Notes under the pieces: model-generated
Seen by the model: the letters and a program-made list of their open reading frames with translations, nothing else
What the model was told of the DNA's origin: nothing
The model's database searches: none
Position numbers and translations under genes: made by a program
Assembly: GCA_033763455.1 (NCBI GenBank)
Contig: JANRKO010000019.1
Span: 137,618-201,617, forward strand
Direction of reading: 5' to 3'
Source: Polyangiaceae bacterium
GTDB lineage: Bacteria; Myxococcota_A; Polyangia; Polyangiales; Polyangiaceae
Length of the DNA stretch: 64,000 nt
In this document: piece after piece, positions 31,445 through 49,363 of the stretch
Numbering within the stretch: position 1 is the stretch's first letter
Layout of the letters: each line of letters opens with the position of its first letter

Positions 31445-32557
31445 TCATGCGCCACTCTTGCCGTTGGTGAGAAGCTGCGCCGGGAGCAGTGATTGGAGCC
31501 CGTCGGCCCCAACCACCACCTTCACTTCTTGGATGTGCTGAGCGATCTCTTTCATCGCTTCCAGCTCCTTCAAGCGCAAAAGTACCGGGTTTGCCTCCAT
31601 AACCTTGGCCGTGTTCGCCAACGACCGCGTAGCGGCCGTTTCTTCACGACGTAAGATCACGTTGGCCGCAGCTTCCTTTTCGGCCTCGATCACGCGATTC
31701 AACAGGGCTTTCATTTCACCCGGCAAAACCACGTCTTTGACACCCACATGTTCGATCTTGACTCCCAGCGCCGTGGTGCATGCCGTAACCCGTCGCTCCA
31801 TGAAGCGTGTCATTTCGTCACGCCCTTCGAGCAATTGATCGAGGGTTACCCCGGCCACGTATTCACGCGCGGCAAGCTGGGCTGCCGTGTAGACAGAATC
31901 CCGTAGGTTCTGCACCTTGGTTGCAACCACCACCGGATCAGAAACAGCGTATTCGGCCGTTAACGTCAAACGCAACGTCACCTTATCTCGCGTCATCAAT
32001 TCCTGACCAGCAATGGTTACTTCCTGGCGCCGCATATCCACGACGCCAATCTCGGCCTTGGCTCCAGGGTGCGTCCACAACTTGTATCGGCCCGGCGGCA
32101 ACACAGAAACGAAGCGCCCCTGCTCGTAACGCAAGCCCATTTGGTAGGCCAATACCGTTACGTCAATGTACTCATTGGACGGAATCAACCGCTCCAACTC
32201 TGCCGACATTTCCGGCAAAGGCTGAGTAACATCGAACACCGAAAGCTGCACAGAAGCATCTACGGTCCAATAACGGTGCACCCCCGGGCGCAAAAATGCC
32301 ACCGGCACACCATCTTTGAACAGGACACCTCGTTCACCAGAACCAATCACAACCTCACGAAACCAAGCAGAAGGCAGTTTTGCCCGGACTTCCGGCAGGG
32401 CTGAAAACAGCAAAACACTGGTATCGAACCGTTGCTCAGTGAGCCGCAACGACCAAACCCGATAACGGCCCGGGCCAAGTGCAGCTACAGGTAAGCCGTC
32501 CTTGAAAAGAACCACTCGTTCGTTTAACTTCACACGAATCAATTTTGACCACAACAT
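31445..32557 (-). CDS. SPFH/Band-7 (slipin-like) domain protein
   Basis: Band 7 core followed by a coiled-coil tail. Confidence 0.65.
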   Translation of the reverse strand: MLWSKLIRVKLNERVVLFKDGLPVAALGPGRYRVWSLRLTEQRFDTSVLLFSALPEVRAKLPSAWFREVVIGSGERGVLFKDGVPVAFLRPGVHRYWTVDASVQLSVFDVTQPLPEMSAELERLIPSNEYIDVTVLAYQMGLRYEQGRFVSVLPPGRYKLWTHPGAKAEIGVVDMRRQEVTIAGQELMTRDKVTLRLTLTAEYAVSDPVVVATKVQNLRDSVYTAAQLAAREYVAGVTLDQLLEGRDEMTRFMERRVTACTTALGVKIEHVGVKDVVLPGEMKALLNRVIEAEKEAAANVILRREETAATRSLANTAKVMEANPVLLRLKELEAMKEIAQHIQEVKVVVGADGLQSLLPAQLLTNGKSGA

Positions 32558-33071
32558 GGGTCACCTCTTGGGTTGATGGACTCCCACCTTCGGCGTGAGC
32601 ACCATGCCCGCGCCTTTGGAGATCGTCGATTGCTGGTATTTGCCGATACCGTCGGCTTTCGGCGAGCCCGCCTTTGGCCCTAGTAGTAGGGAGAACGGGA
32701 CTCGGAAGATGTGCGGGGGCTCTGCAGACTGCTTGAGCCCGAAATTAGTGGCTCCAGAGGTTCAAAGCCCGGCGCCTAGGTTGAAGCGCAGTGTGAAGCC
32801 GCCGTAGCGGCCTCCGAAACGCTTCTCGCTTGAGCGTCTTGGGTCCGATGATTTGCGCGAAATCACTGCGATCTCACCCGGTTGCAGTCAGCGGGCGCCG
32901 AGGCGATGGCCGAAGCTTGCGAGCGAAATGTACGTGAGTTTGGGCAAAACTCGGGTCCGTTCGCCTTCCCCCAATGGCTGCGGAAGGGCTTTGAAAACCT
33001 CTGGAAACCTGGTGTGAATGCCTTTTTAAGGCCAGGCCCTTTGCTCTACCCGATGAGCTACAACTCCGTGA

Positions 33072-33124
33072 GGAGAAGATCGGATTCGAACCGACTACCG
33101 AAGGGTTCTGCCGTGACAGGGCAG
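33072..33124 (-). other. tRNA 3'-half-like fragment (anticodon arm GUC, T-arm GTCGG-TTCGAAT-CCGAT, acceptor 3' strand) with no matching 5' acceptor
   Basis: The minus strand gives a G.U-containing T-stem (A.C mismatch on plus) and a CTGCC-CTGTCAC-GGCAG hairpin. No GGAGAAG-type 5' acceptor partner was found upstream. Confidence 0.3.
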
Positions 33125-33249
33125 TGTCATCCATGACAAGCATGCTTCCGGGACACAACTACCGGACATCCATCGGTGACTCACGAGGAGACCAATGCAC
33201 GCAGTGTTGCGCCGTTTTGAAGCAAGCTTCGCGGGATTCGAACCCGCGG

Positions 33250-33323
33250 CACACAAGGCAAGATTCGAACTTGCACTCTACTGATATAGAATCAGCGGCC
33301 TCTACCTTTTGGGCTACATGTGT
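33250..33323 (-). tRNA. tRNA-like gene with CUA (amber-reading) anticodon; possibly a pseudogene
   Basis: The minus strand ACACATGTAGCCCAAAAGGTAGAGGCCGCTGATTCTATATCAGTAGAGTGCAAGTTCGAATCTTGCCTTGTGTG folds as a cloverleaf. U8, A14, G18G19, A21 and T54-T55-C56-G57-A58 are present. T-arm GCAAG/CTTGC, anticodon stem with one G.U, 5-nt variable loop. There is one T.T mismatch in the acceptor and a U at position 37. A second hairpin, GCGGG-TTCGAAT-CCCGC, follows only 9 nt downstream (33231-33247). Confidence 0.35.
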
Positions 33324-33370
33324 TAATTGGTTGCATACGGTTGGTCCTCTTGCTTTGAATATCGAGCCGG

Positions 33371-33408
33371 GAAATGAAAAAAGCCGCCGAGGTAACCCTG
33401 GGCGGCTT
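33371..33408 (-). terminator. Rho-independent terminator for the PA14 gene (minus strand)
   Basis: AAGCCGCC-N12-GGCGGCTT stem followed on the minus strand by TTTTTTCATTT. Confidence 0.6.
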
Positions 33409-33687
33409 CACACAGAAACACTGCGTAAACGCCCTAGGGGGAGCCCCGAAAATCGCGAAAATTGCCGACTAAGCTGCGCTCGCGGCGTGCACCACAGACG
33501 AAAGCCATGCCAAGATTTGGCAGCTGTTGTGCTGTGATGGTGAAACGGTGGAAGTGCTTCATGAGGAGGCCGCAGAGTACGGATCTAGAAAAACAAGTCA
33601 ACACAATATCGCTCAGGCGTGTTTTTTTTACGAGGTGACGTTGCTCGCGATCCTCATTTCAAAGCTCCACCATGCAACACAGAGTCC

Positions 33688-34380
33688 CTAGAGGCGAGCC
33701 GTCCAGACGCGTTCAGCGCTGCCGGGGCGAGTCACGAACAAGCGCAGTGTTACCGGAGCCCGTTCACCCATGAGATAAAGCACGCGGATTTTGTGCTCCC
33801 CGGGAGCCAGCGGGATGCTGCCCATCGCATTATGAGCCTTCCTGCTGTCGTCGTTGTTCACGACTTGGCGGCCATTAATCCACAGGATGGCGGCGCCCTG
33901 GGTCTTTAACCGAAACTTATAGTTGCCAGCCGCCGAAACGGAGAATCTGCCAGTGTAGTTAATGGCAAACCAGTCGTAGCGCTCGGCGATTCCTGGGAAA
34001 CCCGAAAAGTAGCGCTGAGCTACGTCCAAGCTATCCACGAACAAGCGACCTTGCGGGATGCACCGTTCAAGGCGCAGCAAAGACACTGTGTTAGGCTTAA
34101 CAAAGCACACTGTACCCGCGAGCGCTGCTTTGCGGCTGTGGCCAAACAAGGTGCTCCCCGACACCACAGGTACGCGACCACCTTTGTGACTCGCCCAACG
34201 CTCGCCCATGCCAGCGGGCGTGCCGCCTTGCTCGACACCGTACCCGTCCATTCTGTTGCGGCTAGCAGTTCGGATCCGTTCCCCCAACGACTGACCATGG
34301 GCCGCGCCAGCTAAGCTCAGCACTCCAAGTGCCACGCGACTCCCCCACTTCCACAACGTCCCGATCACCATGCGTTTCAC
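33688..34380 (-). CDS. secreted PA14 domain protein
   Basis: Signal peptide plus a PA14-like core (GRFSVSAAGNYKFRLKTQGAAILWINGRQVVNND). Confidence 0.7.
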   Translation of the reverse strand: MKRMVIGTLWKWGSRVALGVLSLAGAAHGQSLGERIRTASRNRMDGYGVEQGGTPAGMGERWASHKGGRVPVVSGSTLFGHSRKAALAGTVCFVKPNTVSLLRLERCIPQGRLFVDSLDVAQRYFSGFPGIAERYDWFAINYTGRFSVSAAGNYKFRLKTQGAAILWINGRQVVNNDDSRKAHNAMGSIPLAPGEHKIRVLYLMGERAPVTLRLFVTRPGSAERVWTARL

Positions 34381-34534: not shown

Positions 34535-35986
34535 ATGGATCTCAAACACTACGAAGTGGATCCGAAGAGTTACGACGAAATGTTCGACGCGAGCGGCGAG
34601 GTTCGGCCGGCCTATCGGGAACTTGCGCGGCGGCTCGGCGAAATGTCCGGTGAAGATTTCACCCGGCGGCAACGCACGGCAGATATCTTGCTGCGAAACC
34701 AGGGCGTCACGTTCACCGTGTACTCGGACGACGCGGGCATTGAGAAGGTTTTTCCGTTCGACCCCATCCCGCGCCTGATGCCTGCCGAAGAATGGAGCCT
34801 GATTGAACGCGGCTTGATTCAGCGCATTGAGGCCTTGAACCTTTTCATTGCTGACATCTATGGGGATCAACACATCCTCAAAGACAAAGTGGTTGATCCT
34901 GAGCTCATCTTAGGCGCCTCATTTTTCCGCCGTGAGATGATGGGGTTTAGGCCGCCTCGTGGGATCTATACCCACATCACCGGCACAGATTTAATTCGCG
35001 ATGCCAACGGAAAATTCGTCGTCCTAGAAGACAATGCTCGGAACCCAAGCGGCGTGAGCTACGTGCTTGAATGCCGCGCAGTTCTGAAACGTGTCTTCCC
35101 GCTCTTGTTCGAAACGTACGGAGTGCGCCCGGTTGAAGATTACGCCAATTGGCTCCGCGACATGATGCAATTTGTAGCGCCACGAGGCTCATCCAATCCA
35201 AGCATGGTGGTGCTGACGCCGGGCATCTACAATTCGGCGTACTTCGAACACAGCTTTTTAGCCCGCCAAATGGGTGTACCGCTCGTCGAAGGTCGAGATT
35301 TGGTCGTAAAAGATGGAATGGTGTGCATGCGCACGATTACCGGGCTGCAGCGGGTGGATGTTATCTACCGGCGCCTGGATGATGACTTTCTGGACCCACT
35401 TATCGGTCGCCCTGATTCGGTATTGGGCTGCGCGGGGCTTTTCTCGGCGTATCGCAGTGGGGCGGTGACGCTCGTGAACGCACCAGGCACAGGCGCCGTG
35501 GACGATAAAGCTGTCTACCCGTTCGTGCCGGACATGATTCGTTATTATCTTAAGAGTGAACCTATCATTGACAACGTTCCAACCTATTTGGCAACCCGCC
35601 CGGATGAGCAGAAGTACATGCTCGAGAATATCCACGAACTGGTGATCAAACAGACCGACGCTTCCGGCGGCTACGGCATGTTGATTGGCACGCACTCTAC
35701 GGCAGAGGAACGCGAAGACTTCAAACGGCGCATCAAGGCTAAGCCCCGCTCCTACATTGGCCAACCCACTATCAGTCTCGGCAAACATCCCACAGTAATC
35801 GACGGTAAGCTGGAAGGGCGGTGCGTCGATTTGAGGCCTTATGTCCTTTATGGCGAGCGAATTTCGGTCATTCCAGGAGCCCTCACCCGGGTGGCACTCA
35901 GGAAGGGCTCTCTCGTTGTTAATTCAAGCCAAGGTGGTGGCTACAAAGATACCTGGGTGCTCACTGATAAGGGAGGCGCAGCCTAA
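34535..35986 (+). CDS. circularly permuted type-2 ATP-grasp protein (DUF404/DUF407)
   Basis: 483-aa protein with the characteristic order of this amidoligase family; its stop overlaps the next start. Confidence 0.75.
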
Positions 35987-36903
35987 TGTTAAGCCGAGTT
36001 GCAGACGCCCTTTATTGGATGAGCCGTTACGTCGAACGTGCTGAGCACGCAGCACGTGTCCTCGAGGTCACACGCCGCATGTTGATCGACGTTGAGCCCC
36101 TCGCCCCTCAAATGGCCAAACGCATTCGGGACGACGCATTTCGCAGCTTGGGCCTTCCGGGCGTCGACTTGCACGGAGCCATCTTCGACGAATCAGAGCC
36201 TGGGTCTATCGCCTCCTCTGTCTTCAGAGCCCGAGAGAATGCTCGTCAGGTGCAGGAGGTTATTAGCTCGGAGATGTGGGGCTATATCAACGAGACGCAC
36301 TGGATGCTCTCGGAGGCCCGTCGGGCGGGGCCTTCGCGTGAGCTGCCAGACCTCTTGGGTGAAGTAGTAAAGGCTGGGTTTCTTTGGGCTGGGGTTACGG
36401 ATGCCACTATGGGTCGCGGGCCTGGTTGGTTGTTTATTCGCCTGGGCCAGTTCGTTGAACGAGCGGACCGAACGAGTCGAATTTTTGCGGCACAATGGGA
36501 GGCCATCGAGGAGTTGAGTACTGAGGCCATCCACACCTCGGGCGATCACTTTGCCTGGCTCACATTGCTTCGGAGTTGCGGATCGCTTGAGGAGTATAGG
36601 AAGCGGTACCCAACACGCATGACAGCACGGCAAGTGGCGGATTTTATGCTGCTAGACGACACCTTTCCGCGCACCGTGCGCTACTCAGTCTCAGTTGCGG
36701 CCGAATTTTCAAAACGCTTAACCCAGTTCGCAAGCCCCGAACGCGCCCGCGCTGAACGCGCGTTTGGGAGAGTCGCTTCTCGCATCGAATACACCACCAT
36801 CGACGAAGTTATGGAGACCGGCCCAGCTGTGTTCGTGAGAGGCGTTGCAGAAGAGATCTTGCTGGCGACAGCCGAGCTCCAGAGCGCGTATTTCTTGCAC
36901 TAA
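35986..36903 (+). CDS. alpha-E domain protein (DUF403)
   Basis: [21 protein letters not shown]... is a hallmark alpha-E N-terminus. Confidence 0.75.
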   Translation: MLSRVADALYWMSRYVERAEHAARVLEVTRRMLIDVEPLAPQMAKRIRDDAFRSLGLPGVDLHGAIFDESEPGSIASSVFRARENARQVQEVISSEMWGYINETHWMLSEARRAGPSRELPDLLGEVVKAGFLWAGVTDATMGRGPGWLFIRLGQFVERADRTSRIFAAQWEAIEELSTEAIHTSGDHFAWLTLLRSCGSLEEYRKRYPTRMTARQVADFMLLDDTFPRTVRYSVSVAAEFSKRLTQFASPERARAERAFGRVASRIEYTTIDEVMETGPAVFVRGVAEEILLATAELQSAYFLH

Positions 36904-36912
36904 CGAGGACCC

Positions 36913-37932
36913 ATGCTGCTGTTCATCAAACACCTCACCGAACTCACGTATTCGGAGCCCATCACCGAAACGGTGATGGAAGTTCGCATGACTCCGCGAA
37001 ACGATGCCCACCAAGTGCGGCGCGCGTTTCGCCTGGAGGTGGGGCCCAGCGCCACACCTTTCGAACACACAGATTGGCTCGGTAACCGCGTGCAGCAGTT
37101 CTCCATTTTGCCCCCGCACGATAAAGTCGTGATCTTGGCTCGGAGCGTGGTGGATACGCAGCCAAGGCACTCAGTGCTCGCAGATGTGAATCGCGGGTCA
37201 GTGCCTCCGCTCGACCATCGAATCGGCGACTATTTGCGCTTCACCGGGCCGGTTGTGGACGTTCACAACCTCGACCGTTTGATTCAAAATTTGGGGCTCG
37301 GGGCACCGGCGTCGCCTGAAGTTATTCTGCAACGAGTCGCGTCAAACCTGCGCGATCACGTGGAGTACCGTAAAGGCGTTACCACGAGCGCCACGGCGAT
37401 CGACAAGGTGCTCGAGCAGCGCGCTGGTGTGTGCCAGGATCTGGCTCACGTGGCCATTGGGATCTTGCGCAAGCTCGGCGTACCAGCTCGCTACGTGTCG
37501 GGGTATTTCTATCGCGCGGATGGAAACAGCGAGATGGAGAGCCATGCTTGGTGCGAGGCGCACTTCCAGGGCACAGGTTGGCTCCCGATAGATCCCACCC
37601 ACAAAACACTGGCGGGCGAAGGGCACGTTGCTATCGCGAGCGGTCGCGATTTCTCTGACGTTTCACCCAATCGCGGCGTCTATCGCGGCAAGGGTGAAGA
37701 GAGCCTGCGCGTAAGAGTCACCGTGCAAGAGGTGCAAGAGGTACCCGAAGGCTTATTTGCCGTAGGCTCACCCGAAGTCGAGGTGCAGCCAATTGGAGGA
37801 GGCATGCTTCCCACCCACCGCGAAGCTCTCGAATACCAGCAAGAACAGCAGCAACAGCAGCAACAGCAGCAACAAGTACAGCAGCAACAGCAGCAACAAG
37901 TACAGCAACACCAATATTCGGCTGTGCACTGA
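36913..37932 (+). CDS. transglutaminase-like cysteine protease family protein with C-terminal poly-Q tail
   Basis: Bact_transglu_N-like N-terminus, Cys/His/Asp core (GVCQDLAHVAIGILR...HAWCEAHF...GWLPIDPTH), and C-terminal QEQQQQQQQQQQVQQQQQQQVQQHQ. Confidence 0.75.
   Translation: MLLFIKHLTELTYSEPITETVMEVRMTPRNDAHQVRRAFRLEVGPSATPFEHTDWLGNRVQQFSILPPHDKVVILARSVVDTQPRHSVLADVNRGSVPPLDHRIGDYLRFTGPVVDVHNLDRLIQNLGLGAPASPEVILQRVASNLRDHVEYRKGVTTSATAIDKVLEQRAGVCQDLAHVAIGILRKLGVPARYVSGYFYRADGNSEMESHAWCEAHFQGTGWLPIDPTHKTLAGEGHVAIASGRDFSDVSPNRGVYRGKGEESLRVRVTVQEVQEVPEGLFAVGSPEVEVQPIGGGMLPTHREALEYQQEQQQQQQQQQQVQQQQQQQVQQHQYSAVH
37820..37925 (+). repeat. CAG/CAA trinucleotide repeat (two copies of a 27-bp CAG-rich unit) encoding the poly-Q tail
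   Basis: cagcagcaacagcagcaacaagtacag appears twice in tandem within a CAG/CAA run. Confidence 0.8.
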
Positions 37933-49093: not shown

Positions 49094-49363
49094 ATGGATG
49101 TGATCGTTCGAATCCCAACCCCTCTTCGTACCCTCACCGGTGGTGAAGAACAGGTCAAAGTTGCCGGCGGTACAGTGCAGCAGGTTATCGATGCCATGGA
49201 AGCACTCCACCCAGGCATCAAAGATCGTTTGCTGGATGAAAAGGGCGTTCGCCGCTTCATCAATATCTACGTGGGCGAAGAAGATATTCGGTTTCTGGAT
49301 GGCCTAGCCACCCCCACAGCTGGCCAAGAGATCAGCATTGTTCCCGCCATCGCTGGCGGCTGA
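49094..49363 (+). CDS. cysO: MoaD/ThiS-family sulfur carrier (CysO-like)
   Basis: 89 aa ending ...IVPAIAGG, located between the E1-like gene and cysM. Confidence 0.6.

Follow-up and report, generated by a model that had tools for sequence, protein, structure and literature searches.

A 64,000-nucleotide (nt) stretch of DNA from a Polyangiaceae bacterium (the window; 59% G+C) encodes on its minus strand, from 33249 to about 33008, an RNA of ~215-240 nt that, judged by its sequence, is related to bacterial Y RNAs of the YrlA class and specific to Myxococcota. YrlA (RF02553) is a tRNA-mimicking Y RNA bound by Rsr, the orthologue of Ro60, in Salmonella, Mycobacterium and many other bacteria (PMC4201824; structure in bioRxiv 10.1101/312249). 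The RNA of the window lies within 1130 bases (32558-33687) that separate a PA14-domain gene from a slipin (Band 7) gene and hold no credible protein gene, and it recurs upstream of slipin in ~12 Myxococcota lineages. Its 3′ part folds as a circularly permuted tRNA-like domain, and its 5′ part joins a free-standing mimic of a T arm to a bulged helix with the core GUCCGG. By analogy with Salmonella YrlA and Deinococcus Yrn1, we give a probability of about 0.6 to the reading that this is a YrlA-type Y RNA variant that would bind Rsr through the GUCCGG helix and present a tRNA-shaped effector domain. An earlier note on this DNA, made from the letters alone, had pointed to a cluster of tRNA-like elements in the gene-free stretch, one of them with an amber-reading CUA anticodon. 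Its observation is confirmed and its interpretation was partly right; the CUA anticodon is of less interest than the conserved mimic of a tRNA, Y RNA-like but rearranged, that is linked to slipin, rsr, rtcB and tRNA arrays.

Conservation upstream of slipin genes

Homologous loci were collected by a DNA pattern scan of genomes (L202, a metagenome-assembled genome of Labilithrix), through slipin homologues (L223, L224, L227, L230 and L239-L242), by a pattern scan of metagenomes (L232, L236 and L237) and through an Rsr homologue (L253, reached via the protein and not via slipin or the RNA). The genome scan, which looked for one T-loop followed by another, returned 100 loci, nearly all of them assembly duplications, tandem repeats or duplications of tRNA 3′ ends, with L202 as the only true homologue; the metagenome scan returned seven, three true (L232, L236 and L237) and four by chance. 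A more general pattern of a T-loop followed by a D arm was saturated by phage tRNA clusters on viral contigs and was set aside for large collections. The GUCCGG-helix pattern gave 10 matches on viral contigs, none with the RNA, and the viral contig collection held no close relatives of slipin or Rsr, so that a phage origin could not be shown.

Every locus has the YrlA-like core, which lies 270-480 nt upstream of a same-strand slipin gene and scores 33-42 bits against the Rfam YrlA model; the copies in L240 and L242 are degenerate. A slipin homologue lies downstream of the RNA at every locus examined. This includes all the loci that were found independently of slipin and reach far enough, namely L202, L232 and L236, which came from DNA patterns, and L253, which came from Rsr.

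A circularly permuted tRNA-like domain

Three copies of the T-loop 9-mer GTTCGAATC lie on the minus strand (33083-33091, 33235-33243 and 33262-33270) in a span of 188 nt, in keeping with the earlier note, which had seen three T-arm motifs within 200 bp. The whole 64 kb holds four matches where 0.61 are expected by chance. The fourth, the only other copy in the window, is a chance match inside a small open reading frame (ORF; 49094-49363, plus strand) that is ThiS/MoaD-like by eye and ends in GG (AIAGG).

The second and third T-arm elements proved to be parts of one RNA. The third had been described as a hairpin with a GUC loop, a T arm and an acceptor 3′ strand that lacked a 5′ half; the three parts are there, and the supposedly absent half is found downstream at 33042-33067. 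Because the acceptor 5′ strand and the D arm lie just downstream, the element is circularly permuted and not truncated. The resulting domain (33034-33108, minus), defined by the Rfam YrlA model, by covariation and by a covariance model of our own (R1), runs from an equivalent of the anticodon-stem 3′ strand through a 5-nt variable loop, the T arm (33079-33095), a closed acceptor stem (33061-33078, loop UCAC) and the D arm (33042-33060) to an equivalent of the anticodon-stem 5′ strand. The two outer strands pair as a closing stem, CCCUU/AAGGG (33101-33105 with 33037-33041), and the domain has neither a free CCA end nor an anticodon loop.

In a permissive Rfam scan, 33039-33103 on the minus strand matched YrlA positions 23-85 with 27.4 bits (E = 0.0023 in a 1.4-kb search). 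An alignment of the domain from ten lineages, with a closing stem of 4-5 bp, has 94% of its cells paired and compensatory changes at 16 of 21 pairs; slid controls reach 36-43%. The Levitt 15:48 tertiary pair, which covaries in YrlA (Chen et al. 2014; PMC4201824), covaries here as well (seven G:C and three U:A, at slide -1). Since this pair and the T- and D-loop sequences are kept, the domain should fold into the L-shape of tRNA. R1, built from the alignment, gives the window copy 74.8 bits and finds the L253/L254 copy, an independent lineage outside the training set, at 68.3 bits; adjacent pairs of ordinary tRNAs score only ~20-34 bits.

The same model finds a second permuted module in L253 (4819-4894, 43 bits), inside the tRNA array upstream of rsr, where a T arm, a closed acceptor hairpin and a D arm are followed by an anticodon-like arm with a CAU loop. 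Downstream of the domain in the window, a 3′ hairpin CCUGG...CCAGG (33008-33036, minus) can be read from the sequence with weak support; at this site most relatives have instead an anticodon-arm-like hairpin, ACGAC-CUUUNAA-GUCGU. In L224 (5594-5700) and L239 (4596-4700), the ACGA(C/U) that follows the D arm can pair either with an upstream UCGU, as the closing stem, or with a downstream GUCGU/AUCGU, as the anticodon-arm-like hairpin. These two pairings of one sequence may represent a structural switch.

A free-standing T-hairpin and a bulged helix

The first conserved element of the RNA is a free-standing T-arm mimic, CC-GCGGG-UUCGAAU-CCCGC-G (33229-33249, minus). Its stem, CGCGGG-UUCGAAU-CCCGCG (33230-33248), begins 2 nt past the discriminator base of the CUA tRNA; the earlier note had found the hairpin and placed it 9 nt away, a minor difference in counting. 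The T-hairpin is kept in the window and in L223, L232, L224, L239, L230, L202, L241 and L253, with compensatory changes in the stem (GC/AU and CG/UA), and it is present with or without a preceding tRNA.

A long hairpin follows (33138-33229, minus; RNAalifold consensus and pair counts) that contains a conserved bulged helix, with the GUCCGG core at 33162-33167. In the helix, 96.6% of cells are paired and five of 13 pairs show compensatory changes, compared with 35-49% paired in slid controls. The core around the UC bulge (GUCCGG and its partner CCGC) is invariant and the flanking pairs covary; in L202, L253 and L241 the core takes the variant form GUCCGC or GUCCGA.

Between the long hairpin and the tRNA-like domain lies a variable linker (33108-33137, minus) whose sequence is not conserved across lineages and whose minimum free energy (MFE) fold has two small hairpins, the D-arm-like GUCAUGGAUGAC (33126-33137) and one with the tRNA-Asp-like loop CUGUCAC (33108-33124). 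We rejected a tRNA-Asp pseudogene at 33079-33137: its Rfam tRNA score of 20.3 bits (E = 0.33) is not significant, and it is unconserved in relatives. The single-sequence MFE fold of the window RNA forms the T-hairpin, the long hairpin, the linker hairpins, the T arm, the acceptor hairpin and the D arm. The earlier note's suggestion of a tRNA-mimicking noncoding RNA thus holds for the second and third elements, as one conserved, covarying RNA of YrlA type.

A candidate Ro60 site and the genomic company of the RNA

Ro60 contacts the sequence GGUCCGA in Xenopus and Deinococcus, and the proposed YrlA counterpart near the 5′ end is GNCGAAN0-1G (PMC4201824). YrlA is bound by Rsr in vivo and modified by TruB and DusA. 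The GUCCGG core shares GUCCG with the former and lies directly 5′ of the tRNA-like domain; by this analogy it is a candidate Rsr binding site. As in YrlA, the tRNA-like T and D stem-loops are split by a closed acceptor-like hairpin. Known Y RNAs keep company with rsr-yrlBA-rtcBA in Salmonella and, as YrlA, with Ro60 in mycobacteriophages. In L202, the strand of the domain also carries a gene with TROVE and vWA_Ro60 domains (Rsr), which ends ~0.85 kb upstream of it and is flanked on either side by tRNA genes. L253 has the order HNH, 23 tRNAs, rsr, tRNAs, T-hairpin, GUCCGC helix, tRNA-like domain, slipin. In L241, genes for RtcB and an RbfA-like protein precede an array of 21 tRNAs, followed by the RNA, slipin and HNH. 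An rsr gene within 4 kb on the same strand, as is usual for YrlA, is thus found in L202 and L253 and not in the window.

We propose that the GUCCGG helix binds Rsr, that the tRNA-like domain may act as the effector or gating module of an Rsr ribonucleoprotein in RNA quality control, and that the upstream tRNA could supply processing sites for RNase P and RNase Z. Several observations weigh against this proposal. The YrlA scores, 27.4 bits in the window and 33-42 in the homologous loci, fall short of the gathering threshold of 69; the terminal 5′/3′ stem of YrlA is unmatched, its outer stem aligning with many non-pairs; and the window RNA has no exact copy of GNCGAAN0-1G. The candidate Ro60 site is part of a local hairpin, its partner strand lying upstream, and not of an end-to-end stem. 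No rsr was found in the 64-kb window, either by tblastn with the Labilithrix Rsr or by Pfam on 18 ORFs, and most lineages are without rsr within 5-6 kb of the RNA. Rsr homologues are common across Polyangia, so the source genome may plausibly have an rsr farther away. Because the RNA scores below the Rfam threshold, leaves the terminal stem unmatched, lacks the exact motif and does not stand beside rsr in the window, it is not a clean member of the YrlA class by published criteria.

The close linkage to slipin raises a different explanation, in which the tRNA-like domain and the bulged helix form a cis-acting leader of the slipin mRNA that senses a factor, such as a pool of uncharged or damaged tRNA, a tRNA-binding protein or RNase P, and sets slipin expression without Ro60. 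The slipin (SPFH/Band 7) gene of the window lies at 31445-32557 on the minus strand (Pfam Band_7, E = 3e-29), and the long leader between the RNA and its start codon (32558-33007, minus) contains further conserved blocks. In a MAFFT alignment of 12 leaders, GGCCAUCGC(AGC)GGCGACC (32894-32911, minus) and, close to the start codon, AAGCCGACGGUAUCGGC (32642-32658, minus) are common to most of the lineages. The position of the RNA 270-480 nt from the start codon of a same-strand slipin at every locus, the conserved blocks that continue down to the start codon, a scan that gave no terminator-like site between the RNA and the gene, and the absence of rsr from the window and most loci all fit such a leader; tight linkage and a conserved leader agree equally well with a cis-acting role as with a separate RNA. 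Against it, the core has specifically the layout of YrlA and that of no known riboswitch or T-box in Rfam, the RNA holds the usual place of a Y RNA, just downstream and on the same strand, where rsr is present, and the second YrlA-like module of L253 lies within a tRNA array far from slipin. We regard a purely cis-acting leader as unlikely, though it is the main rival of the Y RNA reading.

Less probable again is a Ro60-independent branch of Y RNAs, in which a double tRNA mimic, made of the T-hairpin with the bulged helix and then the permuted tRNA domain, has been captured as a partner or regulator of slipin and forms the fixed center of what would be, in myxobacteria, a "tRNA back-up and repair" island that gains and loses rsr, rtcB, HNH and sets of tRNAs, the CUA tRNA being deliberately non-decoding or conditionally suppressing. 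Across the loci, rsr, RtcB and large tRNA arrays come and go around the RNA and its constant neighbor slipin.

The CUA tRNA and the tRNA arrays of relatives

Immediately upstream of the T-hairpin is an intact class-I tRNA gene with the anticodon CUA (33250-33323, minus), recognized by ARAGORN and by the Rfam tRNA model RF00005 with 50.3 bits, above the gathering score of 29. The alignment confirms the near-canonical cloverleaf that the earlier note had described, with U8, A14, G18G19, a canonical T-loop, U33-CUA-U37, the discriminator G73 and a single mismatch in the acceptor stem (U6·U67). CCA is not encoded; the bases after G73 are CCG. The cloverleaf and anticodon are those of an amber suppressor tRNA. 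The usual decoding context of the anticodon loop, U33 with a purine at position 37, is only half present, as position 37 is U where homologues have A37 or G37.

In relatives this position is occupied by tRNA arrays of 9-30 tightly packed genes, 21-30 in several lineages, that cover most amino acids (L227 1-3500; L240 1216-4281; L241 2025-4357; L253 4074-8803; L202 95-3011) and are accompanied by genes for an HNH endonuclease, DUF5131, RtcB, an RbfA-like protein or Rsr. The arrays of L202, L227, L240, L241 and L253 differ in size and lie precisely 5′ of the T-hairpin; in the window the CUA tRNA is the sole tRNA at the array position. Class-I CAA tRNAs occupy this or a nearby position in L202, L230, L227, L240 and L241. 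Those of L202 and L230, which have A73, share the precise location of the window tRNA, 2-3 nt ahead of the T-hairpin, and the CAA type also occurs within the arrays of L227, L240 and L241. All six tRNAs, that of the window included, share the D arm GCCCAA..GGCAGAGGC, and their acceptor, anticodon and T stems vary by paired substitutions; the fold has therefore been under selection, and the tRNA is kept as a folded RNA. The CUA tRNA, ~35% diverged from its relatives in sequence, retains 20 of 21 stem pairs.

Of 114 array tRNAs, the relatives that score best against it are short, of class I and equipped with Leu anticodons (AAG, CAA and CAG); it differs from them by A35U (CAA to CUA), A37U and A73G and by being more AT-rich (46% GC). 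Judged by sequence, it is a diverged member of this unusual family, whose members measure 74-77 nt and have a 5-nt variable loop and A73 (L202 2936-3011; L230 5298-5372; L227 1880-1955 and 2082-2157; L240 3296-3369; L241 4033-4109; L253 7036-7110). The tRNA-Leu of bacteria normally belongs to class II, with a long variable arm. As homologues at the same locus read CAA, the CUA anticodon is lineage-specific; a single base change leads from one to the other.

The earlier note's description of a suppressor-like tRNA is accurate as to form; the function it implies is weakened. That the tRNA works as a natural amber suppressor, with Gln or Leu as its most plausible amino acid and with low-level or conditional read-through of UAG as the outcome, would be in line with the full cloverleaf, canonical D and T loops, U33 and CUA anticodon, with stems that are maintained through compensatory differences from the CAA homologues, and with an identical sequence in two other strains. 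Amber (CUA) suppressors are frequently charged with Gln, and by the identity rules of E. coli the G73, weak 1:72 pair, C34 and U35 of this tRNA agree with several elements for glutaminyl-tRNA synthetase; G73 with C34-U35 would favour charging with Gln. Standing against this are the CAA of the same-locus homologues, U37 in place of a near-universal purine, G73 in place of the Leu-type A73, the U6·U67 mismatch and a promoter scan that gave no strong match. TAG, moreover, ends ~10 of the 43 predicted genes of the window, Pfam-verified ones included, which speaks for a standard code and gives no sign of reassignment or avoidance of TAG. Because the homologues read CAA, positions 37 and 73 are U and G, and TAG is an ordinary stop, a dedicated suppressor is improbable; weak or conditional amber suppression is possible. 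We read the tRNA, from the comparison of loci, as probably all that this locus retains of an array, kept as a folded RNA. Our guess is that it serves as a handle for RNase P and RNase Z by which the Y RNA-like transcript gets its 5′ end, or else as a substrate of the same RNA-repair system, and in either case is no routine amber suppressor.

The ARAGORN label "Pyl" for 33250-33323 is due to the anticodon alone, and we rejected tRNA-Pyl: the anticodon stem has 5 bp, the variable loop 5 nt (AGAGU) and the D loop G18G19, where tRNA-Pyl has a 6-bp stem, a 3-nt loop and a small D loop without GG. As a practical warning, annotation pipelines will call this gene a tRNA-Pyl or a suppressor; the comparison with relatives says otherwise.

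The earlier note had also offered decayed tRNA genes, and att-site remnants of a lost integrative element, as readings. That the elements are debris of this kind, from decayed genes or from tRNA 3′ ends left as scars by integrative elements or a lost array, is suggested by the very different sizes of the arrays exactly 5′ of the T-hairpin, by the HNH and DUF5131 genes beside some of them and by the AT-richness of the CUA tRNA. The first of these marks the T-hairpin site, the seat of arrays of variable size, as a hot spot of gain and loss. As the main explanation, att-site remnants are not supported, and neither is decay: the T-hairpin, bulged helix and permuted domain are kept in ~12 lineages with compensatory changes, the tRNA keeps its stem pairs despite its divergence, and the three T arms differ in sequence and are therefore not direct repeats. 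Covariation thus already largely refutes the debris reading, which we hold to be very improbable. The third element might also be taken for a tRNA gene in circularly permuted form, or for a permuted tmRNA in two pieces, that yields a functional adaptor, and its succession of T arm, 3′ acceptor strand, short loop, 5′ acceptor strand and D arm is indeed that of such genes. This reading is next to excluded: ARAGORN, which detects permuted tmRNA, reports none, the Rfam tmRNA and permuted-tmRNA models are unmatched in the window, the acceptor loop has 3-6 nt and no CCA, the closing stem in the window is uncapped by an anticodon loop, and there is no tag reading frame.

Other features of the gene-free stretch and its flanks

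Only short ORFs overlap the stretch between slipin and the PA14-domain gene (33688-34380, minus), none with a Pfam match, and independent gene calls on a 99.3% identical contig give a single ORF of 42 amino acids there, as expected from the earlier note's ~1.1 kb without protein genes. Two strains at 99.3% identity have two differences in the 1130-nt gene-free stretch and nine in the 1113-nt slipin gene, and none separates three strains in the tRNA, T-hairpin, helix and tRNA-like domain; the differences between strains are clustered, which makes this comparison weak evidence.

Just upstream of the tRNA, 33376-33601 (minus) looks, from its sequence, like an unannotated small RNA. A promoter-like site (TTGACT, 16 nt, TACTCT, within GATCCGTAC(A/T)CT) would give a transcript of ~190 nt that ends in a strong hairpin and U-run, GAAGCCGCC...GGCGGCUUUUUU (33376-33409). 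L224, L237, L239, L230, L223 and L232 share the promoter, a start region with TCATGAA and the 3′ end; the 42-aa ORF inside the segment is not conserved as a protein. A promoter and terminator scan of the region found nothing, the tool having missed the hairpin and U-run at 33376-33409, whose loop exceeds its limit, and Rfam gave no match for 33376-33601. This candidate takes the place that rsr holds in L202 and L253. Adjoining the locus and divergent from the PA14 gene is an operon for circularly permuted ATP-grasp, alpha-E domain and transglutaminase-like proteins (34535-37932, plus). PADLOC and NCBIfam added nothing on the slipin or the PA14 protein. By the homologues of its proteins, the window belongs to Myxococcota, with relatives of Polyangiaceae and Myxococcales type.

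Comparison with known systems

Bacterial Y RNAs have so far been recognized almost only by adjacency to rsr. The RNA described here adds a YrlA-type mimic below the Rfam threshold, a rearranged candidate Ro60 helix and slipin as a constant neighbor; the literature searched gave nothing on a link between Ro60 and SPFH proteins or on tRNA arrays in Myxococcota. Should Rsr bind, the range and architecture of Y RNAs would widen, and Ro60 biology would be linked to SPFH proteins and tRNA arrays; should it not, the RNA would represent a new use of the permuted-tRNA fold.

With natural and phage-borne amber suppressors and tRNA-Pyl, the CUA tRNA shares its anticodon on an intact cloverleaf; unlike them, it has a U37 atypical of any decoding tRNA and orthologues that read CAA, and it is without the hallmarks of Pyl. 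Clusters of 20-30 tRNA genes occur in mycobacteria, cyanobacteria, Firmicutes and large phages. The arrays of the relatives resemble these in their tight packing and in the presence of HNH, and the CUA tRNA is homologous to one of their member types; they differ in being linked to rsr, RtcB, the Y RNA-like RNA and slipin, and the window holds a single tRNA.

Like Deinococcus radiodurans Yrn1 and the metazoan Y RNAs, the RNA would combine a protein-binding helix with an effector module, the helix being bulged and carrying a motif of the GUCCG type, and a T-arm-like stem-loop is found in Yrn1 too. The 5′ and 3′ ends of those RNAs pair to make the Ro60 helix, whereas here the partner strand lies upstream and Ro60 binding is a prediction. 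YrlA itself is about half as long and without the free-standing T-hairpin, and it is not tied to slipin in the way that the window RNA is, which stands apart from rsr in the window and most lineages. The two nevertheless agree in the order of their modules (variable region, T arm, closed acceptor hairpin and D arm within an anticodon-stem equivalent), in near-identical T-loop and D-arm sequences (UAGCUCA..GGUAGAGC), in a covarying 15:48 pair and in a motif like the Ro60 site directly 5′ of the tRNA-like domain. Two related lineages also match YrlA in position, with the RNA on the strand of rsr and <1 kb downstream of that gene, and another has RtcB nearby.

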